Source of the DNA: Candidatus Jordarchaeia archaeon
GTDB lineage: Archaea > Asgardarchaeota > Jordiarchaeia > Jordiarchaeales > Jordiarchaeaceae
DNA: 14,644 nucleotides
Assembly (NCBI GenBank): GCA_029856435.1
Contig: JAHQXB010000159.1
Span: 1 to 14,644 of the forward strand
Direction of reading: 5' to 3'
The notes under the pieces were generated by a model, which saw only the letters and a program-made list of their open reading frames with translations, ran no database searches and was not told where the DNA came from. This document shows positions 58 through 13,992 of this stretch, piece by piece (position 1 is the stretch's first letter; every line of letters starts with the position of its first letter). Both the position numbers and the translations under genes were made by a program.

Positions 58-633
58 TTAGGAGACATCAAACCCTACAACAATAGACCCCAGTTCCGGT
101 TTATTCTCTTCCCCAAGCAACCCCTTCAAATACGCATCACCAGCACGATTACAGAAAGCTAAAACCACATTTCTAACCCCAACCCTTCCCTCCAACTCTT
201 CCATTTTGAATCCCCTACTAACAAAAAGAGTGGGGCCCACCTTTTCACTCCTCAGCCTCCGCACCCTCTCCGGAAAAATAACAAGATTTCTACCAAAAAC
301 ACGCACCTCCTCACAAAACTCAGACTTAACCCCCTCAACATCATCAGTTATGAAACCAACAACCACATCCCCCTGCCACAAAACCACATGCGGACCCCTA
401 GGCCACACAAAACTCATATCCGTGGAGCACGCAACCACCACCTCCCTAGACAAAGCTTCCCGAAGACCCTCATTAAAAACACGGCAACCAACCATAACAT
501 GTTCCTCCCCCTCTAACTCACACCGCAAAAGAGAACCACGCTCAACATCATCCAAAACCCTAACCCTTCTGACACCAGGAACCCCACCTAGAAAAGCAAG
601 AACACCATCCACAAGACTCAACCCATCAGACAC
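58..633 (-). CDS. Hypothetical protein, about 191 aa
   Basis: The ORF track gives 58..762. The first 43 codons look like G/T-rich noncoding sequence. GTG at 633 (or TTG at 636) follows GGTG motifs, and from there the protein has a globular, charged composition (SDGLSLVDGVLAFLGGVPGVRRVRVL...). No family recognised. Confidence 0.7.
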   Translation of the reverse strand: MSDGLSLVDGVLAFLGGVPGVRRVRVLDDVERGSLLRCELEGEEHVMVGCRVFNEGLREALSREVVVACSTDMSFVWPRGPHVVLWQGDVVVGFITDDVEGVKSEFCEEVRVFGRNLVIFPERVRRLRSEKVGPTLFVSRGFKMEELEGRVGVRNVVLAFCNRAGDAYLKGLLGEENKPELGSIVVGFDVS

Positions 634-1300
634 CAAGACACCACACCAAAAATTCCTTTTCAACCACAAGAAAACCCAAATATCCATCCACAATTTGCAA
701 AAAATGCAGAACCCATCCAGATTCGCCGTGAAAGCTTCAACTTGTCCAAGGCACATTAACAAATGCAGTTTTTAAATACCTTTCGAGTTTATCCAGCAAT
801 TTGTAAAATAAAACACATAGTGGAAAAAGAGGAATTAAAGAAAAACGACTTCTCATTTTTGTGGACTTAATCGGATGGGCGAGGAGAAGCTAAATTTTTA
901 TTAAAAAGTTTGGGAAAGTAAAGGGGCATAATTAATTTGGTGTCGCCTGCTGCGTGTCATTTGTTTTTCGGCTTTTGTCACACCCCTTTATTCTTGAGGG
1001 CATTCTATTTACCTTTATGGGTTTTTCCTCTATGAGAATTTCAATCCCTCCTCCGAGTAATCCCCCTGGAGCTTGAGTATCTCCTCTGGTGGAGTTGCAT
1101 ACGCCCCTAGTTTTTCAGGCAGTTTCTCGACTGGAATTACATGGCACTTTTAGCCACACCACCAAACAATAAAACACCCCCTGAAACACGACAAAACCAT
1201 CCACAAAAAAATAGATCCACAACAATAATTAGAAGTACTACTATACTACCAATAAGACAACACAAATCTAAAAAACAATCCCCAGCAAAACAGTCACAAA

Positions 1301-1391: not shown

Positions 1392-2183
1392 ATGGATTGG
1401 GGAATGAAAAATAGACTATCCCGAATAATAAACCCAAAAACCGGACACACCGTAATGCTCGCAGTAGACCACGGCTACTTTCAGGGGCCGACGTCCGGTT
1501 TGGAGCGTCCGGGTGAGGTTATCACTCCGTTGCTTCCTTGGGCTGATGCGGTGATGCTTACTCGTGGTGTGCTTCGTAACACTATTGATGCTACTATTTC
1601 TAACCCTGTTGTACTTAGGGTTAGTGGTGGTACCAGTATTCTTAAGGATGATTTGAGCAACGAGGATATTACTACTTCAATGCGGGATGCGGTTCGCCTC
1701 AACGCTGCAGCTGTGGCTCTTTCAATCTTTGTTGGTGCGCCTAATGAGAAGCAGACTTTGGTGAACTTAGCGAGGTTGGTTGATGAGGGTGAAGAGTATG
1801 GTATGCCGGTTTTGGCTGTTACTGCTGTGGGTAGAGATATGGTGCGTGATGCTCGTTATTTGGGTTTGGCTAGCCGCATCGCCGCTGAGCTTGGTGCAAG
1901 CATGGTGAAAACGTATTACTGTGAGAATTTTGGGAAGGTGGTGGAGGGTTGCCCGGTTCCCATAGTTATTGCGGGTGGTAAAAAGATTCCGGAGCCTGAA
2001 GCGTTGAAGCTGGCCTACAATGCTATCCAGGAGGGCGCTGTGGGCGTGGACATGGGCCGAAATATTTTTCAGAGTGAGGATCCTATTGCCATGATTCAGG
2101 CTGTTCGTTCCATTGTTCAAGAGGGTTATACGCCGGATGAGGCTTTGGAGCTGTTTAATAGTTTGAAGGGTAAGAAGAAGTAG
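1392..2183 (+). CDS. lsrF: LsrF-like class I (DhnA-family) aldolase/thiolase (3-hydroxy-5-phosphonooxypentane-2,4-dione thiolase family)
   Basis: [13 protein letters not shown]-terminus, [30 protein letters not shown] with the Schiff-base Lys, IAGGKK and [10 protein letters not shown] are all typical of the LsrF subfamily. Confidence 0.9.
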
Positions 2184-2237
2184 TTAGAAAATGGGCGTAT
2201 TTTCTTCTTTTTATTGATTTGATGTGGGGAGATTGTT

Positions 2238-3263
2238 TTGCGTGTGGCTATGTATTATAATAATAATGATGTTCGGTTGGAGGAGATGCCTAAGCCTAAG
2301 ATTGGTCCTGGTGAGGTTTTAGTTAGGGCTATGGCTTGTGGTGTTTGTGGTAGCGATGTTATGGAGTGGTATCGGGTTAGGAAGGCTCCCCGCGTTTTGG
2401 GTCATGAAATGACTGGGGAGTTTGTTGAAATCGGTGCGGGTGTGAAGTATAGGATTGGGGATCGGGCTTTTGTCTCGCATCATGTTCCTTGTAATACTTG
2501 TCGGTACTGTTTGACTGGCCATCATACTGCTTGTGAGACTTTGCATACTACTAATTTTGATCCGGGTGGTTTTGCGGAGTTCGTTCGGGTTCCTAGTTTG
2601 CAAGTGGATCGTGGGATTTATTTGTTGCCTGATGATATGAGTTTTGAGGTTGGGACTTTTATTGAGCCTTTGGCGTGTTGTGTTAGGGGGCAGAGGCAGG
2701 CTGGAGTTAGGCCGGGTGACTCAGTCTTTGTTATTGGGACGGGTATTTCTGGGATTTTGCATATATTGTTGGCTCGCAGTCTCGGTGCCGGGATGATTAT
2801 TGGTTCAGATATTAGTAGGTATCGTCTTGATGCTGCTAAGAGGTTTGGTGCTAATGCAGTTATTGATGCTAGGGAGGGGGATGTTGCTGAGAGGCTTCGG
2901 GAGGTTAATGACGGCAGGCTTGCTGATAAGGTGTTTGTGTGTACGGGTGCGGTTCAGGCTGCGGAGACTGCTTTGAGGTGTGTTGATAGGGGTGGCACGG
3001 TTCTGTTTTTTGCGGTGCCTGAGCCGTCGATTAATGTTGCGGTGAATTTTAATGAGATGTGGCGAAATGAGGTTACTTTGACTACTTCTTATGGTGCTAG
3101 TCCCGCCGATTTGGCGACTGCGCTTGAGCTTTTGCGTTGGGGTAACTTGAATGTTAGAGATATGATTACGCATCGTTTCGGTTTGGCTGAGGCGGGTGAG
3201 GCGTTCAAACTTGTTGCCAAGGCTGAGAACTCCCTTAAAGTTATCATAGAGCCTTACAGATAA
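2238..3263 (+). CDS. Zn-dependent medium-chain dehydrogenase (sorbitol/L-iditol/threonine dehydrogenase-like)
   Basis: TTG start. Catalytic Zn motifs CGSD and GHE, structural Zn CNTCRYC...C, EPLAC, and Rossmann GTGISG are present, with C-terminal ITHRF...KVII. Co-oriented 54 bp after lsrF. Confidence 0.92.
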   Translation: MRVAMYYNNNDVRLEEMPKPKIGPGEVLVRAMACGVCGSDVMEWYRVRKAPRVLGHEMTGEFVEIGAGVKYRIGDRAFVSHHVPCNTCRYCLTGHHTACETLHTTNFDPGGFAEFVRVPSLQVDRGIYLLPDDMSFEVGTFIEPLACCVRGQRQAGVRPGDSVFVIGTGISGILHILLARSLGAGMIIGSDISRYRLDAAKRFGANAVIDAREGDVAERLREVNDGRLADKVFVCTGAVQAAETALRCVDRGGTVLFFAVPEPSINVAVNFNEMWRNEVTLTTSYGASPADLATALELLRWGNLNVRDMITHRFGLAEAGEAFKLVAKAENSLKVIIEPYR

Positions 3264-3631
3264 TTTTCATGGTTTTTTCTTTTCAACTATTATTTTTTGG
3301 GAGTTGTGGGGGTTTGGTGTGGTAGGAGTTTTGTGAAGTGTTTGTGTGATTTGTTGGGTGGGTTTTTTGAGCCGTGCTGGTGTGGAATCTGCTTTACGTG
3401 TTTGATTAGGATTCTGGGTGTGTATGTGTTTTTTAATCGAAAAATTTTTTCACTGATGTGAAGTATTGTGTGAGGGCTGCTTGAGGGGGAGATATTAGTA
3501 GCTGGGAGGATAGTTCATTGTATCTTTCTTTGCTGCATATTGTGAGTTGATGTGTGATTGTGGAATGAGAGCAGTTGATGAGGTTTTGCCTGTTGTAAAG
3601 TTTTTGAGCTGGCGAGGTGAATAGAATATCG

Positions 3632-3866
3632 AAATGTTCCTCAAAGGGAACAATTGGAGAAAACCAAGCCACGCTGTGCGGATGAAGCTTGGGATATCCG
3701 AAAAGGGCTTCGGTACGTTCGGCAGCGGGCGAGTGCCAGGCTCGATGTCTGGCATAGGGGCTGTTGTGAACCAGCCCATAACTGAGGCATTGCCGTCCAG
3801 TGAACTTAGTGGTGTTGTTCGAGGCACGACCTCAGAAGCCGCCCTTCTCAAAGGGTGGTAGCTCAC
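3632..3866 (+). mobile_element. Non-autonomous IS200/IS605-family remnant: right end plus structured omegaRNA/reRNA-like scaffold, no tnpA/tnpB
   Basis: Ends in GAAGCCGCCCTT-CTCA-AAGGGTGGTAGCTCAC: a 9-bp subterminal hairpin (3838-3846/3851-3859) followed by TCAC (3863-3866), the typical IS605-group right-end layout. The block is more GC-rich than its flanks and carries several further hairpins. A hairpin at 3635-3652 shares CTCAAAGGG with the right-end hairpin. Confidence 0.65.
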
Positions 3867-3905
3867 TGATAGGGCAAAAGGGTTTGTGGTGTGGAGGGGT
3901 GTATT

Positions 3906-4220
3906 TTAGGTTTCGCTGTTCCAGTCTAGGTCTTCGTCTTTGTCTCTGTCTTTGAGTGTGGCAGTGAGCTGTTTTTCGAGGTTTTGGAAATAGTCTGTTA
4001 TGTCGAATGTGAAGCATTTTTGGTGTCCGCAGTACTGGCATTCGGTTTCCAGCACGTCATAGCTTCTGTTTTCGCTGTGAATTAGGTGCTGGATGTGTAG
4101 TTTGTAGGCGTTTATTTTGCCGCAGCTTCCGCAGGGTTGCTGGGATATGAAGATGTATTCGTCGCGCACACATTTTACCTCGACGGCCTTATCTTTATCC
4201 AACTTGTCCATCTGTTTCAT
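3906..4220 (-). CDS. Small Zn-ribbon-like hypothetical protein
   Basis: 104 aa with PCGSCG and ECQYCG CxxC pairs, DEY and YDVL motifs, and FTFDITDYF. GGTG lies upstream of the ATG, with TTTATCTA (TATA-like) further upstream. Confidence 0.8.
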   Translation of the reverse strand: MKQMDKLDKDKAVEVKCVRDEYIFISQQPCGSCGKINAYKLHIQHLIHSENRSYDVLETECQYCGHQKCFTFDITDYFQNLEKQLTATLKDRDKDEDLDWNSET

Positions 4221-4373: not shown

Positions 4374-4470
4374 TCAGCTTATAGGTACCACTATCATAGG
4401 GGCTAGGAGCTTGAAGGAGGCCAGTTTTGGCTAGGTGAATTAAAGGGGGCCTCTGGGTAGCTACCTTTAA
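4374..4470 (-). pseudogene. Short degenerate N-terminal remnant of a PIN-domain (DUF3368-like) toxin
   Basis: Minus strand reads KVATQRPPLIHLAKTGLL, then after a frameshift KLLAPMIVVPIS*. This matches the VVxDxSPLIxLAKIGxLxLL...IxVP start of the PIN proteins usually paired with UPF0175. It overlaps the end of the UPF0175 gene. Confidence 0.55.
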
Positions 4471-4756
4471 TTTCTTTGATTTCACGCTTTATCTCCTCTA
4501 AGGTTGCTGGGAAGGGGATGTTATACCGTTTTAGGCTGTCAAGATTCTCTCTGTATGTTGCATCAGCCATTTCGACGGCGCGCCACACTGTAATTTTTCT
4601 CTCCCTCAGGAGTTGTAGGGCCTCCTTCAGCTTGAACTCTCTTATACCTTGCTTCAACATTTCTCTGATAACTACTTATCTGTCAACGCCCCTCTTTTTC
4701 GAAATTCTAAGTTCCTCTAGTATTTCCCTTTCCACTCTTGAAGAAACAGTTTCCAT
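4403..4756 (-). pseudogene. UPF0175-family (RHH + HTH) putative antitoxin with an in-frame premature stop
   Basis: ATG 4756 METVSSRVEREILEELRISKKRGVDR, TAA at 4678-4676, then the same frame continues VVIREMLKQGIREFKLKEALQLLRERKITVWRAVEMAD...NIPF. This joins track ORFs 4676..4858 and 4403..4660. Confidence 0.8.
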
Positions 4757-5117: not shown

Positions 5118-5327
5118 ATGACCTGCTATTTTAGGCATATACAAAATATTTTCGGGAAGGCGGGAATAACTGTTACGGAGAGAAACAAGAGGGAAATCGA
5201 TCGAGTCATTCATCGCATTGTGGGTGTGGAATATAAGAATTGTTCAGCTGTTTGGAGGGAGGTTAAGAAGAGAATAGCTGAGGATGAAGATGGATTTATT
5301 TCAGAGCTTAAGAAGGCTTGGGGCTAG
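5118..5327 (+). CDS. Small hypothetical protein (MTCYFRH N-terminus)
   Basis: 69 aa with a GGAGGT RBS at 5104-5109 and GAAACTTATA (BRE/TATA-like) at about 5078-5087. Helical, charged composition. It resembles a small conserved protein family of anaerobic archaea (from memory, not searched). Confidence 0.8.
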   Translation: MTCYFRHIQNIFGKAGITVTERNKREIDRVIHRIVGVEYKNCSAVWREVKKRIAEDEDGFISELKKAWG

Positions 5328-5475
5328 TGCTTTCCACACATACTTGTAAATCCTACAAAAGGGAATGTAGTTGAACTGGGGGTATGGTGGAGGGGGATTA
5401 GCCCTTCAATTTTTCAGTTTTGTTGCTTATCGAGTGGTAAAACTTTTTTCAACGGTTGAGGAATTTGGACTTACA

Positions 5476-5580
5476 GGGCTAGATACGTACAGATATATGT
5501 TTTATTATGTTGATACGTATATACAGTTAATTTTATATGTTAGTTTGTACAATTTATGAGTACAATTATTGATGGAGGAG
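5476..5580 (+). promoter_or_regulatory. Promoter and candidate operator repeats upstream of the methyltransferase cluster
   Basis: GATACGTA at 5482 and 5512, TTTTATAT (TATA-like) at 5531-5538, GTACAATT at 5547 and 5560, and GGAGG RBS at 5574-5578. Confidence 0.5.
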
Positions 5581-5587
5581 AAACAGA

Positions 5588-7084
5588 ATGCCCAAACCCG
5601 GTGTTCCTTTACCGTCGCGTGGATTGTGGAAATTGTTAGATAAAGAAGAATTGGATATAATTGATGCTGCCGGTTACAAAATTCTGCAAGATGTGGGCGT
5701 CTTCATAGATGATGAGGGACTGCTGAAGATGGCTGAGGAAATGGGATGCAAGGTAGACTATGGAAAGAAGGTTGTTACAGAGATTCCTGAACACATAGTT
5801 AAAGAGAATGTGCGCAAGGCTCCTAGAAGCTTCATATTAGCGGGTAGAGTTCCGGAGTGGGATGTTGTCATTGAGGGACCAGCAAGAAAGCAGTTCTGGT
5901 CGGTGGAAAGCGGAGCCACAGATTTCCTTGAGTGGGATAAAGAGAAGAAGACATATTATCGCAGGAGAGCAAGCGCAAAAGATGTTTTGTATGGAGCCAA
6001 AATCGTTGACGGCATAGATGACTTCGATTTCAACATCTACATTTGGGATGCTGCTGAAGAGGGGCAAAAGGGACTACCCTCAGAACTAAACAAGATGAAT
6101 GCCATGCTCCAAGGCACTGTGAAGTGGGCTGGCCACCTATGCACAACAGTTTCTAAAATTGAGGAATACGATTATGTGGAAAGGCTGGGTGAACAGGTAG
6201 CGGGAGGCGCAGAGGAGCTAAGAAAGAGACCACTCTTCTGGACCGTGTACAACTACATTGGTACACTGCAGTTGAACAGGTTCAATAGCTGGTTGTTTAG
6301 AGCTTCAGTTAAACACCATTGGCCAATAATGCCCGCCGTGACTGCTGCTGCACCTTTACAAGGCCCAGCTATGGCCGCGGGAAACACTGCAATTAGCCAT
6401 GCGGGTGTACTCTTCATGATAGCGCTTAAACAGTTCCACGACCCGGGTATAGCGGCGGCGGTAAACAACATAGTTTTCTGCTTAGATCCATGGACAGGAA
6501 GAGGAAATGCTTACTCTCCGCATTTTCTGTTCGGCTCGGGAGCCATGAATCAGCTATGGCACGAACTCTACGGTCTTCCAACCACACAGTATGGTGGCAC
6601 ATTCGCGGCAAGCCTCGACCAGCAAATCTTCAATCTTTCGAGGTGGATGGCTTTACAAATGGCGATGGGGACAGACATGATATTTATACAGTGTGGAACT
6701 GAAGCCTTTGATCCTGCGTTAATACCTATAACTGCTGAGATAGCAAGGGCGGGTAGATGCACTATGGCTGAATTTGATCAGATCCTTCCCACACCTGAGA
6801 ATCTTGCTCTTGACGTGATTAAAGAGGTTGGAGTCAAGGGAGAGAAATGGATGACACACAAATATAATCTTGATCGCATGAAGAGGTTCCCCAAAACTTT
6901 CTGTCTTGATGACAGGGCCTTCGACGCTTGGCTGCAGGCTGGTGCACCATCTTGGGCTTATGATATTTGCAGGGAGAAATTGAAGGAGTTGGAGAAGCAC
7001 GAACCGGAGCCACTGCCGAAGGATGTGGTTGAGCGGATGAATGCCATTGTGAAAGAGGGAAATGAGAAGCTGAAGGTGGGATAA
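5588..7084 (+). CDS. mttB: MttB-superfamily (trimethylamine methyltransferase family) substrate:corrinoid methyltransferase, non-pyrrolysine, divergent
   Basis: 498 aa with LDKEELDIIDAAGYKILQDVGV, APRSFILAGRVPEWD, GPA..AGN...SHAGVL, LYGLP, ENLALDVIKEVG..G...THKY, DDRAFDAWLQAG and C-terminal HEPEPLP. There is no in-frame TAG. The symbol denotes family only; the substrate is unknown. Confidence 0.88.
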   Translation: MPKPGVPLPSRGLWKLLDKEELDIIDAAGYKILQDVGVFIDDEGLLKMAEEMGCKVDYGKKVVTEIPEHIVKENVRKAPRSFILAGRVPEWDVVIEGPARKQFWSVESGATDFLEWDKEKKTYYRRRASAKDVLYGAKIVDGIDDFDFNIYIWDAAEEGQKGLPSELNKMNAMLQGTVKWAGHLCTTVSKIEEYDYVERLGEQVAGGAEELRKRPLFWTVYNYIGTLQLNRFNSWLFRASVKHHWPIMPAVTAAAPLQGPAMAAGNTAISHAGVLFMIALKQFHDPGIAAAVNNIVFCLDPWTGRGNAYSPHFLFGSGAMNQLWHELYGLPTTQYGGTFAASLDQQIFNLSRWMALQMAMGTDMIFIQCGTEAFDPALIPITAEIARAGRCTMAEFDQILPTPENLALDVIKEVGVKGEKWMTHKYNLDRMKRFPKTFCLDDRAFDAWLQAGAPSWAYDICREKLKELEKHEPEPLPKDVVERMNAIVKEGNEKLKVG

Positions 7085-7087
7085 GAG

Positions 7088-7750
7088 ATGTCTGAGAAGG
7101 AAAAAATCTTGAAAAAGTTGGCAGAGGCAGTCGTGAATTTTGATGAGGCTGCGGCTATGGCTGCTGTGGATGAGGCGATTAAGGCAAAGATTAACCCTGT
7201 TGATGCTCTCACTAAGGGACTTACTGTGGGTATCAAGGAAGTTGGCGATAAGTTTGGGAGAGGCGAAATCCCTCTACCCTTCTTGATGTTGTCCGCTCAG
7301 GTTATGGAAAAGGCTTCTGAAAAGCTCCAGCAACACATCCCGAAGGAAGAAGTTCCCGAACCCTTGGGTGTAATGGTGATTGGAACCGTTGAAGGCGATA
7401 TACACAACTTGGGCACAAACATTGTTACCGCCGTGTTCAGCGCGTCCGGAATTAAAATGTACAATATTGGCGTTGACCAGCCAGTAGACAATTTCATAAA
7501 AAAGGCCCTAGAAGTCGATGCTGACATTATTGGGGCATCAGCGCTTATGAGCAATACACTTCAGCAGCAAAAGTTTCTAGGCGAGGCCCTTAAGAAAAGG
7601 GGGCTCAGAGACCGGTTCATATATATGGTGGGCGGTGGAGCCTTTCCCGGTGAAGAATGGTTAAAGGAAGTAGACGCCGACGACTATGCCACAGACGTAA
7701 TTATAGGGCTGGAAAAAGCCAAAAAACTCCTAGAAGAAATAAAAGAATAA
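7088..7750 (+). CDS. Corrinoid (B12-binding) methyl-acceptor protein, MttC/MtbC/MtgC-like
   Basis: N-terminal four-helix cap (LTKGL..GIKEVGDKF..GE..LP.LMLSA), GTVEGDIHNLG (DxHxxG), GASALM (SxL) and YMVGGG. Starts 3 nt after the mttB stop. Confidence 0.93.
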   Translation: MSEKEKILKKLAEAVVNFDEAAAMAAVDEAIKAKINPVDALTKGLTVGIKEVGDKFGRGEIPLPFLMLSAQVMEKASEKLQQHIPKEEVPEPLGVMVIGTVEGDIHNLGTNIVTAVFSASGIKMYNIGVDQPVDNFIKKALEVDADIIGASALMSNTLQQQKFLGEALKKRGLRDRFIYMVGGGAFPGEEWLKEVDADDYATDVIIGLEKAKKLLEEIKE

Positions 7751-7851
7751 CAATGTGAAAGGAAGACACTACACATCCACTCCTTTCTTTTTTTATTTCA
7801 AAGTTTTAGCGGAGCTAACAAAGAGAAGAGCCTTATGGGTGAGAGTTCGAC

Positions 7852-9789
7852 ATGGCTTTAGAAGTGGAGGTAACTTTTCAGCCTGAGGGTAAACGTGTAA
7901 GGGTTAAACTTGGCGAAACGTTATTAGAGGCAGCCAAACATGTGGGCGCTGATTTAACCTCGATTTGTGGAGGTGAGCGTACCTGTGGAAAATGTAGGGT
8001 CATAGTTGAGAGGGAGAGGGAAAACGCTGGCTCCATAATGGATGTGGAGAGGAAATTTTTATCCTCAGAAGAGATAGCCGCAGGTTATAGATTGGCTTGC
8101 TGCACACAACTCAGGGGTAACCTCACGGTTAGAATACCGGAGGAAAGTAGGACTGGTCGCCAAAGGCTTCAAGTTGAAGGAATAGAAACTCCAGTGAAGC
8201 TAGAACCCCTCATAAACAAATACTTTCTTAGATTGTCGAAACCATCCCTTCAGGATCCTAAAGCTGACTTTGAAAAACTGTTGGAGGAATTACAGTCTCA
8301 ATATGGTCTTAATGATTTGGAAATAAGTTTCGATGTTCTTCGAAGGCTGCCAATTATTTTAAGAGACGGTGAATGGAAGGTAACAGTTACCACCTGGAGG
8401 AACGATACCATAATTGGTGTAGAGCCCGGGGATACGACACGTAGAATCTTTGGTTACGCTGTGGACATTGGAACCACGAAACTCGCTGGTTATCTCCTTG
8501 ACCTAACTACGGGAAAGGTGGTTGCAGTGGATTCATTGATGAATCCGCAGATACCATACGGAGAAGATGTCATAACAAGAATTACTTATGCTACGAAGGG
8601 AGTTAAGGAGCAAAAGGATCTTCAACAAGTAATTGTCAATGGTGTAAACCAGCTCCTTAAAGGGCTCTTGGAAAAGACAGATGTCAATCCAGAAGAGGTT
8701 TACGAAGTGGTTGCGGTGGGCAACACTGCCATGCATCACCTCTTTCTAAACATTTGCCCCAAATTTTTAGCCTTGTCACCGTACCCTCCTGCCATTAAAA
8801 GGGGATTAGATGTTAACGCAGAAAAAATTGGGATACAAATTAATCCGAACGGTAACGTTCATGTTCTTCCCGTGATAGCGGGGTTTGTGGGAGCGGACGC
8901 TGTTGCGGTAATTTTGGCGACCGAGATGTACAAAAGAGACGAACTTTGCATGGCGTTAGACATTGGGACAAATACAGAAGTCTTTTTGGGAAACAAAGAT
9001 GGGATATTTGCGTGTTCCTGTGCTTCAGGCCCTGCTCTTGAGGGGGCTCGCATAAAGTATGGGATGAGGGCTGCGAGTGGCGCAATTGAGAGGGTGAAAA
9101 TAGATCTCAATACTCTTGATGTTAATTATTGGACTATAGATAATGATAAGCCTCACGGGATTTGCGGCTCGGCTATGGTAGACATTTTAGCAGAGATGTT
9201 GAAGGCCGGAATAATAGATGTTTCTGGGGTTATGAATAGAGACTTGGCCTCAGATAGGTTGCGTTCTGGAAAAGCGGGGCTTGAGTTTGTGTTAGTTTGG
9301 AGGGAAGAAGCCGCTACAAAGGAGGACATAGTTTTCACCCAGAACGACATTAAGGAGATTATTTTGGCAAAATCAGCTATACACACGGGAACCATGACGC
9401 TCATGAGAAAGAAGGGCATAGTTGAGGCGGACATAGATATACTCTTCATTGCCGGGGCCTTCGGCTCCTATATAGACCCGGAAAACGCGAGAATAATAGG
9501 TATGTATCCCGAGGTACCACTGGAAAAGGTGAAGATAGTAGGTAATGCTGCGGGAACTGGGGCAAGAATGGCCCTAGTTTCCAGTGCAGCCAGAAACACC
9601 ACTGAAGAAATATCGAAAAAGGTAAAGTATGTGGAGCTCGCGGCAGAACCCAACTTTCAATCAGAGTTCCTTAACTCGTATTTCTTACCTTACGCAGACC
9701 TATCGAGGTATCCACAAACCAGCGAGCTACTAAAAAAATTGGGTAGGTACCCAAAAAGGCCTCCAGTATATTTTCCAAGTAAAACCTAG
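7852..9789 (+). CDS. ASKHA-domain reductive activator of corrinoid proteins (DUF4445/RACo type) with N-terminal [2Fe-2S] ferredoxin
   Basis: CGGERTCGKC...RLACC 2Fe-2S motif, AVDIGTT, NPQIPYGEDVITR, GFVGAD, DIGTNTE, SCASGPALEG, GICGS, AGAFGSY and GNAAGTGA. Confidence 0.93.
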   Translation: MALEVEVTFQPEGKRVRVKLGETLLEAAKHVGADLTSICGGERTCGKCRVIVERERENAGSIMDVERKFLSSEEIAAGYRLACCTQLRGNLTVRIPEESRTGRQRLQVEGIETPVKLEPLINKYFLRLSKPSLQDPKADFEKLLEELQSQYGLNDLEISFDVLRRLPIILRDGEWKVTVTTWRNDTIIGVEPGDTTRRIFGYAVDIGTTKLAGYLLDLTTGKVVAVDSLMNPQIPYGEDVITRITYATKGVKEQKDLQQVIVNGVNQLLKGLLEKTDVNPEEVYEVVAVGNTAMHHLFLNICPKFLALSPYPPAIKRGLDVNAEKIGIQINPNGNVHVLPVIAGFVGADAVAVILATEMYKRDELCMALDIGTNTEVFLGNKDGIFACSCASGPALEGARIKYGMRAASGAIERVKIDLNTLDVNYWTIDNDKPHGICGSAMVDILAEMLKAGIIDVSGVMNRDLASDRLRSGKAGLEFVLVWREEAATKEDIVFTQNDIKEIILAKSAIHTGTMTLMRKKGIVEADIDILFIAGAFGSYIDPENARIIGMYPEVPLEKVKIVGNAAGTGARMALVSSAARNTTEEISKKVKYVELAAEPNFQSEFLNSYFLPYADLSRYPQTSELLKKLGRYPKRPPVYFPSKT

Positions 9790-9920
9790 TTTACGTTGAT
9801 TAATGTTACTTAATTAGTGATTTGAAGCAGGATAAGAAAAATGATTGAAAAATGCTTGAGTGAAAAATCGACACATTGTTGTCTGATGATGGTTAAATTG
9901 TCAGTTATGTGTTAAGGGTG

Positions 9921-10841
9921 ATGAGTTTGTTCAAATTTGAGAGAGAACAAAAAATTTTTGATGTGGCCGGCGTCAAAATTGGAGGACAGCCGGGGCAGCT
10001 TCCCACTGTAATGATTGGAACCATTTTCTATCATAAGGATAAAATTGTGAAAGACGAAAGGACAGGAGAGTTTGACAGGGAGAGCGCTGAAAAAATTCTA
10101 ATGGCTGAAGAGGAAATATCTTCCAAAACTGGTAATCCCAGAATAGTTGATGTTTGCTCTTCGTGGCCTCAGGCCTTTGAGAAATTCATTGACTTCGTGG
10201 CTGATACCATTGATGGACCGTTTTGCATTGATGGAACAACTGCTGATGTTAGGATGGCTGGAGCTAAATATGTTGGGGAAACCGGCTTGTCGGAACGCGT
10301 TATTTATAATTCGATAGCTCCAGAAATTAAGGAGGCGGAGATTTCAGCGATTAAAGAGGCGAAGATAAAAACTGCAATCCTACTGCTGCTTAACACAGAA
10401 AAGCCGCTTATCGCCGGGAGGTTAGAGGTAATTGACAAATTACTGGAGAAGGCAAGAATGGCAGGCGTAGAGAACATACTCATAGACACAGCGGTATTCG
10501 ACATACAGGACCCTGGACCCACGGGCAAAACCATTTATTTAGTTAAGGACAGGTATGGTTACCCAGCGGGATGCGGAGCCCATAACGCCATAGACATTTG
10601 GCACAAACGCAGAAAACTAAGCCCAGAAACATATTTTGCCAGCAGTCTAGTCGCCAACATTTTACCCGTAGTAATGGGAGCCAATTTCATGTTATACGGC
10701 CCCATCAAGAACGCAAACAAAATATATGTTCCAGTTGCAGTTACAGACGCATACATAGCCTACACCATGTGGCAAGAATACAATTACATGCCCTTAGCAA
10801 AAAGTCACCCCTTCTTTAATCTAAGTAAAATAGCTACCTAA
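9921..10841 (+). CDS. mtrH: MtrH-family methylcorrinoid:tetrahydromethanopterin/tetrahydrofolate methyltransferase (stand-alone MtrH/MtgA-like)
   Basis: FKFEREQKIFDVAGVKIGGQPGQLPTVMIGTIFY, KTGNP, IDGTTADVR, IYNSI, GCGAHNA and GANFMLYGPI. The track start is GTG 9909; ATG 9921 after AGGGTG is the more likely start. Confidence 0.9.
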   Translation: MSLFKFEREQKIFDVAGVKIGGQPGQLPTVMIGTIFYHKDKIVKDERTGEFDRESAEKILMAEEEISSKTGNPRIVDVCSSWPQAFEKFIDFVADTIDGPFCIDGTTADVRMAGAKYVGETGLSERVIYNSIAPEIKEAEISAIKEAKIKTAILLLLNTEKPLIAGRLEVIDKLLEKARMAGVENILIDTAVFDIQDPGPTGKTIYLVKDRYGYPAGCGAHNAIDIWHKRRKLSPETYFASSLVANILPVVMGANFMLYGPIKNANKIYVPVAVTDAYIAYTMWQEYNYMPLAKSHPFFNLSKIAT

Positions 10842-11676: not shown

Positions 11677-11910
11677 TCAATTATTGAGCCCGCTTGCTAG
11701 ATGCTCAACATTTTCATATGTGGTGTTTGGATCTCCTCTCTTTCCTTTGAGAAAGATGTAGAGGCCTTGCAGTACTCGGATTTGGATTAGACCCTCCTCC
11801 TTTTTGATGACTTGCCATTCGAGTTTGTCCCCGGTTTTAATTCTCCTAAGCTGTCTCATTTTGCTGGGAACCGTCGCCAGACCTTTTTTGCTAACCGTCC
11901 TAGTCTCCAC
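11677..11910 (-). CDS. AbrB/MazE/SpoVT-family DNA-binding protein (VapB-like antitoxin)
   Basis: METRTVSKKGLATVPSKMRQLRRIKTGDKLEW matches the AbrB pattern (S/T-x-K-G-x-x-T-I/V-P...R...I..GD.L). GGAGGT RBS precedes GTG 11910. Confidence 0.8.
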   Translation of the reverse strand: METRTVSKKGLATVPSKMRQLRRIKTGDKLEWQVIKKEEGLIQIRVLQGLYIFLKGKRGDPNTTYENVEHLASGLNN

Positions 11911-12816: not shown

Positions 12817-13992
12817 ATGTGTCCTGAGAAATTTTGGAAACGCGAAGATGGAAAAGATGGTTGGAAAGATGATGAGATGGCCGACTTACATTGGCACATT
12901 GATACTCCGGAATACGTCATTAGGGGGGCGGTGATGGCAAGCATTCCTCAGGGGATTCTTCCGCCCAGTGTGTTCGTTTTTGCGACCTGGACTAATAGCG
13001 GAGTGAACTTTTCATACTTTGTTTCGCCAGAAAGAGATTTAGACTTGGAGTATGCTAGGAGGAATGGGGTCTCAGTGGGTGTTCGTGGAACCGTGACTGG
13101 CGGCTGCTCTTGGACGGATAAGGGAAGTCCGGGTAACGCGGTGGGATTTAGTAGAAACCATCCTAAGTGTCCCTCCACCCTAAGTGATCTTTATAGAATT
13201 GTTTTTACAGCTTATGCGGATGCCATCAGTGAAGAATATAGTGTTAAAACCAGGTTTAGACCCATAAATGACATTGAAGTTCTTTGTGATGATAGTGTTT
13301 GGAGGAAGTTTGGTTTGGCGGGTGGATTGGAGTCCTCAAGTTTTCTAGCTGTTGGAAACTCTGTACAATTAACTGAGGTTCCCTGGGACCTAGTGGACAA
13401 GGTTATTATTCCGCCTCCCGAAAAGTTTGCGGACAAGGAAACTAAAACCCTCAGAGACCGGTCAACCTTCTTCAACAAGGTTGTTGGAAGAGAGGTGTCC
13501 TTTGAAGAGCTAGAGATGGTTTTAAAGAGGGGAGTAGAAAAGGCCTTCAATGTCACATTTGTCCCAACCAAAATTTATTGGGAGGACATCCCGTTTTACA
13601 ACAGTATAAAGAAGCTGCTCACTTCCGAGGACTGGTTTTACGCCCGAACGGAAAGAAAAAAGTTCCAGAACACACCCATAACCCCAGACGTGAAAAGGGG
13701 AGAGGCACTGGATAAGAGTCCTCAGGGACCACTGGTAAGAGTAACTGTACTAGTGAAGAACGAAAAGATATACAATATTTTAATCACTGGCTCAATACAT
13801 GCAGCCCCCATAATTCCAGAATCCCCAATAGACACCATGGAAAGAGAACTACAAGGAACAGCGGCAGAAAAAAATGCAGTTAGAGAAAAAGTGGAAAAAA
13901 TATTCAACACGGAATCCTACCAGATAATGAATATCACACCAGAAAAATTCACAGAAATCATAATGAAAGCAATCAAAGCAGCGACACCATAA
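12817..13992 (+). CDS. lplA: Divergent lipoate-protein ligase family protein (BPL/LplA/LipB catalytic domain fused to an LplB-like C-terminal domain)
   Basis: PPSVFVFATW, DLEYARRNGVSV, FRPINDIEV...WRKFG with the conserved Lys, IPPPEKFADK, EDWFY, and C-terminal G.LVRVTV.....I..ILITG...AP. The start codon is uncertain (12817 or 12877). Confidence 0.8.
   Translation: MCPEKFWKREDGKDGWKDDEMADLHWHIDTPEYVIRGAVMASIPQGILPPSVFVFATWTNSGVNFSYFVSPERDLDLEYARRNGVSVGVRGTVTGGCSWTDKGSPGNAVGFSRNHPKCPSTLSDLYRIVFTAYADAISEEYSVKTRFRPINDIEVLCDDSVWRKFGLAGGLESSSFLAVGNSVQLTEVPWDLVDKVIIPPPEKFADKETKTLRDRSTFFNKVVGREVSFEELEMVLKRGVEKAFNVTFVPTKIYWEDIPFYNSIKKLLTSEDWFYARTERKKFQNTPITPDVKRGEALDKSPQGPLVRVTVLVKNEKIYNILITGSIHAAPIIPESPIDTMERELQGTAAEKNAVREKVEKIFNTESYQIMNITPEKFTEIIMKAIKAATP

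Follow-up and report, generated by a model that had tools for sequence, protein, structure and literature searches.

A soluble corrinoid methyl-transfer module, probably demethylating, with a divergent MttB-superfamily methyltransferase in a Candidatus Jordarchaeia genome

This article concerns a stretch of DNA of 14,644 nucleotides (contig JAHQXB010000159.1; hereafter “the window”), which is an entire 14.6-kb contig (C48) of a Ca. Jordarchaeia (= Freyarchaeia) metagenome-assembled genome (MAG) of 3.54 Mb, 97.8% completeness, and 5.7% contamination. At positions 5588-10841 it carries four co-oriented plus-strand open reading frames (ORFs) for a substrate methyltransferase (MT-I), a corrinoid protein, the activase RACo, and a second methyltransferase (MT-II) of the MtrH family; the original prediction of an adjacent, co-oriented four-component module is borne out by the ORF coordinates and Pfam domains. 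Judging by sequence, we think it probable that these genes form a soluble cobalamin-dependent module working in the demethylating direction, from a methyl donor through the corrinoid protein to tetrahydromethanopterin (H4MPT) and the Wood-Ljungdahl pathway. Modules of this type have already been published; what we add is a rare MT-I subfamily, its loss of betaine ligands, the alternation of its MT-II partners, and a thermosome companion. The features are as follows.

5330..5587, plus strand: AT-rich region upstream of MT-I with a GGAGGAG ribosome-binding site, a probable promoter on our reading of the sequence
5588..7084, plus strand: MT-I, a pyrrolysine-free divergent MttB-superfamily methyltransferase of 498 amino acids (aa) (Pfam MTTB)
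7088..7750, plus strand: cognate corrinoid protein of 220 aa, with a helical cap and a Rossmann B12-binding domain (Pfam, DxHxxG)
7784..7799, plus strand: T-rich tract, TTTCTTTTTTTATTTC / TTTCTTTTTTT, 34 nt past the corrinoid stop (sequence reading)
7852..9789, plus strand: RACo-type ATP-dependent reductive activase of 645 aa, with an N-terminal [2Fe-2S] ferredoxin and an ASKHA ATPase (Pfam)
9909..10841, plus strand: MT-II, an MtrH/MtgA-family methyl-corrinoid:pterin methyltransferase (PF02007)

The Pfam domain matches of all four ORFs are far beyond chance. For MT-I, the match to MTTB (PF06253; 96.8 bits, cut-off 25, E 1e-27) spans residues 14-489, and the frame has no in-frame stop. Its AlphaFold2 (AF2) model has a predicted local distance difference test score (pLDDT) of 93.3, and Foldseek aligns this model over ~505 columns each with MttB (7xcl; template modeling [TM] score 0.86, 23% identity), with MtgB (2qne/9yce; TM 0.82, 21% identity), and with 4yyc (TM 0.82). 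The profile of its clade scores 187 bits against MttB and 134 bits against MtgB. MT-I is a full-length MttB-superfamily TIM barrel, yet it is an outlier within the superfamily, because its MTTB score of 97 bits compares with 378 and 332 for the two other paralogues in the same genome; its TIGR02369 score of 181 lies below the cut-off of 525. Together with a corrinoid protein, such an MT-I makes up a textbook pair, of which 7xcn is a solved homologue.

The corrinoid protein matches B12-binding_2 (E 2e-19) and B12-binding (E 7e-18), and its His-on motif, DxHxxG, reads DIHNLG at residues 104-109. It reaches the cut-off of none of the models MtbC (176 against 350), TIGR02370 (175 against 215), and MtgC (165 against 310). 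RACo has all four expected domains, namely Fer2, RACo_linker, Raco_middle, and RACo_C_ter, the C-terminal one with an E value of 4e-96, and its ferredoxin cysteines (Cys39, 45, 48, and 83/84) are present. It scores 551 with AcsV (cut-off 800); we ruled out an identification as RamA, for which the TIGR04270 score of 163 is far under 500.

MT-II matches PF02007 with 285 bits (E 8e-85). Among the NCBIfam scores for the module no equivalog cut-off is passed, and the only model to pass is the MtrH-family subfamily model NF002142 (310, cut-off 287); both TIGR01114 (263.8 against 271.4) and MtgA NF047990 (258 against 550) stay below. We rejected MT-II as a subunit of the membrane MtrA-H complex on the grounds of this TIGR01114 score and of a window without other mtr genes. 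In the PDB it matches MtrH 8z9u (243 bits), MtgA 6sj8 (227 bits), and the Mtr-complex MtrH 9qtp (185 bits). The more likely start of the gene is the ATG at 9921, behind a GGGTGA ribosome-binding site, which gives a protein of 306 aa as in relatives.

In the mechanism that we propose, the TIM-barrel pocket of MT-I would receive a methylated compound, whose methyl group the enzyme would hand to Co(I) of the adjoining corrinoid protein; from the methyl-Co(III) state of that protein, the MtrH-like MT-II would pass it to a pterin, most likely H4MPT. The resulting methyl-H4MPT could be turned into acetyl-CoA via carbon monoxide dehydrogenase/acetyl-CoA synthase (CODH/ACS), or oxidized via Mer, Mtd, Mch, and Ftr. 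With ATP and its [2Fe-2S] domain, RACo would return corrinoid that has lapsed into Co(II) to the reduced state.

The methyl branch and CODH/ACS of the H4MPT-type Wood-Ljungdahl pathway are present in the genome, which encodes CdhC, CdhD/E, Mch, Mer, and Ftr, and the methyl-pterin from MT-II therefore has a destination. The genome has no McrA, and its sole MtrA match is an MtrA-MtrH fusion in one 511-aa frame (C95:505-1926), a fusion known in Freyarchaeia/Atabeyarchaeia (PMC11291895). With these genes in place and FTHFS not found in the 97.8%-complete genome, the delivery of methyl groups to a pterin and the Wood-Ljungdahl pathway, as first predicted, is a sensible reading. The genome further holds four intact MtrH-family genes and one remnant, three MttB-superfamily genes, and many URO-D genes.

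How MT-I relates to other family members was assessed with two trees, FastTree on 155 rows and IQ-TREE LG+C20 on 66 rows. A phmmer search of 1.84 billion cluster representatives gave 21 matches to MT-I at E<=1e-30, and one full-length 50%-identity cluster spans its tight clade. This clade (support 100) consists of Jordarchaeia/Lokiarchaeia-labelled MAGs, Hodarchaeota, and Methanomethylicia; its sister is a Promethearchaeota/Helarchaeota group, one member of which comes from Deferrimicrobium. The subfamily as a whole (22-39 rows) falls on one side of a branch. Separate from it, with support of 100 in the FastTree tree, are both genomic paralogues and the pyrrolysine (Pyl)-MttB clade (itself 99 in both trees), which is recognized by seven genes whose frames are interrupted by a stop precisely at MT-I column 338. 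The bacterial homologues found are at most ~30% identical to MT-I, except for the Deferrimicrobium member at 35%. Orthologues occur in four of five same-genus genomes, four of five sister-family genomes, and 2 of the 20 other Asgard genomes searched (these last two weak). MT-I is thus placed in a rare, deep subfamily of Jordarchaeia, Hodarchaeota, Methanomethylicia, and Promethearchaeota, apart from Pyl-MttB. Its position outside the characterized clades, implied by the original prediction, agrees with both trees and with the residue mapping that follows, the trees having been built without MtgB, MtcB, MtpB, MtyB, or MthB reference sequences.

For the residue mapping, we built a profile from 30 members of the clade and aligned it with solved chains; for MtgB 2qne the chain index equals the native number plus 16, as verified on R312, H348, F356, and Y97. 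Unlike Methanosarcina MttB, MT-I is without pyrrolysine: Thr338 stands at the Pyl334 column, where the seven genes mentioned above have their stop, and Phe366 stands at the Tyr364 column (PMC9842639). Its S108-G109 align to the Gly110-Thr111 cis-peptide of MttB, which contacts the corrin (PMC9842639). In MtgB, glycine betaine is held by the cation-pi pair Y97/F356 and by the carboxylate ligands R312/H348 (PMC13080624). The counterparts in MT-I are S108 for Y97, T333 for R312, and I367 for H348, and F356 lies within a four-residue insertion missing from the MT-I clade. R312 is kept in MtgB, MtcB, MtpB, MthB, and MtyB, where it binds the acidic group of the substrate (Picking et al. 2026, PMC13080624); the equivalent column in the tight clade holds T, A, C, S, or Q, and never R.

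Without this arginine, a betaine-type or phosphorylated donor becomes less likely. MT-I probably does not act on betaines, and its substrate is likely to be free of carboxylate and phosphate groups, which makes an onium compound without acidic character a better candidate than a betaine. Because MT-I has no pyrrolysine and no evident MtaB-type zinc site, the donor must carry an already activated methyl group. The original suggestion of an N-methyl compound or quaternary amine, called probable, keeps its place as a guess at the level of the family, and its “probably” is qualified by an active site in which the acid-anchoring Arg is Thr, Ala, or Cys.

The gaps within the module are 3, 101, and 119 bp. 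With only 3 bp between them, MT-I and the corrinoid gene almost certainly share a transcript; tight coupling is limited to this pair, and co-transcription of RACo and mtrH with it is not assured, in view of the two longer gaps and the T-rich tract. By its sequence, the tract is a possible archaeal terminator and/or internal promoter. In the region upstream of MT-I, GATACGTA is present twice (~5483-5520) and is followed by TTTTATATG. A scan of the window for bacterial-type promoters and terminators, which does not cover archaeal promoters, gave counts near those of shuffled sequence (19 against a mean of 15.6 and 11 against 7.3, respectively).

The four-gene order is kept in two further MAGs, Ca. 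Jordarchaeia QZM_A3 (locus L030) and L031, at 94-99% identity; the MT-I gene itself is 98% identical to its counterpart in QZM_A3, and likewise in L031. The closed genome of the same genus, G005, is laid out differently, with chaperonin, then corrinoid protein and MT-I, then RACo, and MtrH is missing from the 8 kb around them. The layout with all four genes co-oriented is for this reason a derived arrangement of the window's species group.

Looking at relatives more widely, the adjacency of MT-I and the corrinoid gene is kept in nearly all loci long enough to show the pairing. In Jordarchaeia, Hodarchaeota, Methanomethylicia, and Promethearchaeota alike, MT-I nearly always has a RACo or RamA-like activase no more than a few kb away. 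Most of the Asgard loci examined (Jordarchaeia, Lokiarchaeia, and Promethearchaeota) have MtrH as the MT-II partner, whereas a URO-D protein takes this place in Methanomethylicia and in the single Hodarchaeota locus. The URO-D partners score 327-365 bits with MtaA/CmuA NF004889 (cut-off 244) and also pass the cut-off of the methylcobalamin:coenzyme M (CoM) methyltransferase subfamily. One and the same MT-I/corrinoid pair, combined with either a pterin- or a CoM-directed MT-II, would therefore be a substrate-demethylating front end, and this is our main argument for the direction of flow. As a control we used 43 ordinary MttB-superfamily loci, each of at least 9 kb, whose neighbours include MtrH in 1, URO-D in 2, and RACo in 7.

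Several points weigh against the demethylating, H4MPT-directed reading and should be kept in mind. In the PDB matches given above, MT-II is near-equally similar to the tetrahydrofolate (H4F)-dependent MtgA and to archaeal MtrH, so H4MPT is no more than the likely acceptor. RACo and mtrH stand behind the two long gaps, with the T-rich tract after the corrinoid gene; MtrH is not adjacent in G005, nor is RACo in L021. The residue mapping of MT-I is a profile-to-sequence alignment at ~22% identity, made without model coordinates, and the betaine-enzyme references were left out of the trees. Finally, Arg at column 333 (MtgB R312) is also rare among the sampled uncharacterized MttB homologues, which seldom have it there, and we dropped Arg loss as a hallmark of the MT-I clade for that reason.

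The acceptor is where a rival survives best, unlikely as it is: MT-II would methylate H4F, or the methyl group would move onward to CoM or another thiol via the MtrA-MtrH fusion. It draws on the higher score of MT-II with MtgA than with the Mtr-complex MtrH (227 against 185 bits), on an MTHFR-like gene that adjoins mer, on the MtrAH fusion encoded in Jordarchaeia (PMC9723677), and on the CoM synthesis predicted for Freyarchaeia (PMC11291895). H4MPT is nevertheless preferred as the acceptor, in view of the missing FTHFS, an H4MPT branch and archaeal CODH/ACS that are complete, and the lack of any McrA to consume methyl-CoM.

Quite unlikely, too, is that MT-I is a betaine enzyme isofunctional with MtgB, MtcB, MtpB, MtyB, or MthB, its donor being a carboxylated or phosphorylated quaternary amine. 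Published annotations assume as much (PMC11291895), every characterized non-Pyl MttB-superfamily member uses a quaternary amine (PMC13080624, PMC12155760), and the architecture equals that of MtgBCA. None of the four glycine-betaine ligands of MtgB is retained in MT-I, however, not even the R312 common to all five characterized enzymes. The low identity to MtgB, the lower profile score against MtgB than against MttB, and an MTTB score far below those of the genome's other paralogues likewise speak against it, and no BCCT-type transporter was found in the window.

We consider it very unlikely that the four genes are mere neighbours, RACo and MtrH serving other corrinoid systems and only the MT-I/corrinoid pair being dedicated. 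The long gaps and the T-rich tract, the locus without MtrH in G005 and the one without RACo in L021, and a genome with several MtrH, MttB-like, and URO-D genes would all fit such an arrangement. They are outweighed by the retention of the four-gene order in L030 and L031 and by the lineage-wide company of MT-I, which has an activase of the RACo/RamA kind within a few kb almost everywhere and an MT-II in most lineages, companions that ordinary MttB loci rarely have.

A reverse, biosynthetic flow, with methyl-H4MPT as the source from which MtrH charges the corrinoid and with MT-I as the methylase of some acceptor, is the least probable of the rivals: corrinoid methyl transfers are in principle reversible, and there is no transporter close by, nor any gene that would plainly serve to break down a demethylated product, but onium synthesis from methyl-H4MPT would be energetically uphill, and the orthologous pair of Methanomethylicia is joined to an MtaA-type CoM methyltransferase, which is a substrate-consuming methylotrophic layout. 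All characterized MttB-superfamily enzymes, moreover, demethylate their substrates (PMC13080624).

Similarly associated with the subfamily is a divergent thermosome (Cpn60_TCP1) paralogue, which sits among the cluster genes at no fewer than 12 of 14 distinct loci, the bacterial Deferrimicrobium one included, and at none of the 43 control loci. The MT-linked paralogue scores 375-481 bits with thermosome_alpha and may be a pathway-dedicated chaperonin. Its coordinates are L022:10218-11966, L024:6158-7855, L026:10560-12287, L027:4296-6047, L028:6133-7818, L043:4809-6329, L047:13416-14942, L048:3431-5101, and L115:7441-9006. It is not in the window, nor in the closest relatives L030, L031, and L021, and our literature search returned no relevant report that ties thermosomes or chaperonins to MttB/MtrH clusters. 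The source genome has seven Cpn60_TCP1 matches, which is unusually many, on contigs C70, C55 (two), C160 (three), and C5. Those on C160 adjoin another MtrH gene, and two of the three have an in-frame stop (TGA, TAA). The C70 chaperonin is the best match to the MT-linked one (51%) and has no methyltransferase genes within 12 kb; it sits ~1 kb from the contig end, and linkage to the MT-I module cannot be claimed.

Other genes also recur near the pair. Methanomethylicia loci have MoxR (AAA_3) and VWA genes and a second corrinoid protein near MT-I and its corrinoid partner. In addition, an SCP2-like protein (sterol-carrier fold, ~130 aa) accompanies the pair in Methanomethylicia and Hodarchaeota (L024:2732-3124, L027:10210-10602, L029:1972-2364, L034:1911-2300, and L026:5001-5351). 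Beside the 43 ordinary MttB genes, the SCP2-like, MoxR, VWA, and second corrinoid genes were found in no case.

These neighbours invite a more far-reaching reading, which we put forward tentatively and regard as doubtful: that the subfamily, in Jordarchaeia, Hodarchaeota, Methanomethylicia, Promethearchaeota, and one Deferrimicrobium, is a new functional class with a kind of donor new to the superfamily, thermosome-aided maturation, and one compound that fuels both Asgard acetogenesis and Methanomethylicia methanogenesis. The donor would be non-acidic and possibly hydrophobic or carrier-bound, as the SCP2-like neighbour suggests. Maturation might be helped by the dedicated thermosome paralogue, and by MoxR/VWA as well in Methanomethylicia, a methanogen class with members in culture. 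MtrH and H4MPT would then lead to acetogenesis in Asgard archaea, and MtaA and CoM to methanogenesis in Methanomethylicia.

Among known systems, the MtgB/MtgC/MtgA system of Desulfitobacterium hafniense has the same non-Pyl TIM-barrel MT-I, DxHxxG corrinoid protein, and MtrH-like pterin MT-II. The original prediction had matched the module to this architecture, and the match stands: it is MtgB/MtgC/MtgA plus an activase, in an archaeal host without McrA. In contrast to MtgB, MT-I has only the identity and TM score given above and conserves none of Y97, R312, H348, and F356; MT-II is far under the MtgA equivalog cut-off, and the acceptor is probably H4MPT rather than H4F. The MttB/MttC/MtbA/RamA system of Methanosarcina supplies the closest solved structure to MT-I (7xcl) and has a corrinoid protein of the same type, whereas in the window MT-II is of the MtrH type and not a URO-D protein, the activase is a RACo with [2Fe-2S] and not RamA, and the genome is without Mcr.

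A further comparison is offered by the methoxydotrophic MtoABCD system of Methermicoccus shengliensis and Archaeoglobus, in which the MtrH-like MtoA moves the methyl group from MtoC to H4MPT, not to CoM, and MtoD is the dedicated activase. MtoB, the MT-I of this system, is not known to belong to the MttB superfamily, and methoxylated aromatics serve as the substrates.

The claim of an undescribed system cannot be upheld, as both the cluster type and its interpretation have been published for Freyarchaeia/Atabeyarchaeia (PMC11291895) and Culexarchaeia (PMC9723716), and in outline for Jordarchaeia (PMC9723677). Valentin-Alvarado et al. (2024, PMC11291895) describe MttB-like (COG5598), MtbC-like, and MtrH genes in proximity in Freyarchaeia and Atabeyarchaeia, call the MttB-like proteins “a previously uncharacterized group,” and propose a non-Pyl methyltransferase for quaternary amines or an unknown substrate that feeds tetrahydrofolate or H4MPT. 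Kohtz et al. (2022, PMC9723716) proposed the equivalent for Culexarchaeia, activase included, and Sun et al. (2021, PMC9723677) named the Jordarchaeia methylotrophic acetogens. The published Freyarchaeia, Atabeyarchaeia, and Culexarchaeia clusters share with ours a non-Pyl COG5598 MT-I, a COG5012 corrinoid protein, and MtrH, as well as the proposed role of feeding a methylated substrate into H4MPT or tetrahydrofolate and the Wood-Ljungdahl pathway of Mcr-lacking archaea; a COG3984 activase is listed for Culexarchaeia only, and the window has an activase too. The host belongs to the same class as the published Freyarchaeia, the window sharing 98% identity with a Ca. Jordarchaeia MAG. What sets our cluster apart from the published ones is the arrangement of all four genes in one orientation, specific to the window's species group. 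Neither PMC11291895 nor PMC9723716 mentions the loss of betaine residues or the MtrH/MtaA partner alternation, and terms for thermosome, SCP2, and nitroreductase-fold neighbours do not appear in PMC11291895.

That Asgard and TACK archaea practise methylotrophy without methanogenesis has so far been deduced from genomes only. The MT-I subfamily is small, well delimited, and common to candidate Asgard acetogens and Methanomethylicia; its methyl donor, once named, bears on the carbon flow of hot-spring and sediment Asgard archaea and on methane formation. The module would leave our understanding of corrinoid methyl transfer unchanged, and its value lies in substrate discovery and in possible pathway-dedicated chaperonins.

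Elsewhere in the window, ORF 58-636 (minus strand; listed as 58-762) encodes a conserved protein of ~192 aa with no Pfam, NCBIfam, or ESM Atlas match and no significant Foldseek match. It recurs 2-8 kb from the MT-I cluster in Jordarchaeales, Lokiarchaeia-labelled, and Hodarchaeota genomes (L021, L022, L032, L026, G004, G006, G007, and G010). Its AF2 model (pLDDT 91.6) was compared by VIA-align, in which ~40 of the 44 top rows are nitroreductase/FMN-oxidoreductase folds with moderate Z values of 5-8; on the strength of this model, an accessory role in the handling of flavin or cobalamin is possible.

Downstream, 2 kb past mtrH, ORF 12817-13992 (plus strand, 391 aa) has no Pfam match and gives weak lipoate-protein-ligase matches (LplB/LplA, E ~1e-8, far below cut-offs); it is 93-94% identical in L030 and L031. 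GcvH has been noted near mtrH in related genomes (PMC11291895); among the small ORFs of the window, none matches GcvH. Just upstream of MT-I, ORF 5118-5327 (plus strand, 69 aa, MTCYFRHIQNIF...) is followed by a hairpin and T-run at 5388-5417. It is 86-88% identical in L030 and L031, was not found in more distant loci, and has no family match. Rfam and tRNA scans of the window gave no match, and a repeat search of the flanks gave short chance-level pairs only.

Upstream of the module are an LsrF-type aldolase/thiolase (1392-2183, plus strand; NF006081 425 bits, cut-off 297) and a zinc alcohol dehydrogenase (2238-3263, plus strand), which are syntenic in L031 only and are unlinked to the MT-I cluster in other lineages. 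Small antitoxin-like ORFs stand on either side of the module, one of UPF0175 (4403-4660, minus strand; 31 bits) and one weakly MazE-like (11677-11910, minus strand; E 0.003). Over 2001-4000, which takes in the alcohol dehydrogenase gene and the small minus-strand ORFs that follow it, the GC skew is strongly positive, at +0.36 to +0.43, and the AT skew is negative, at -0.27 to -0.29.

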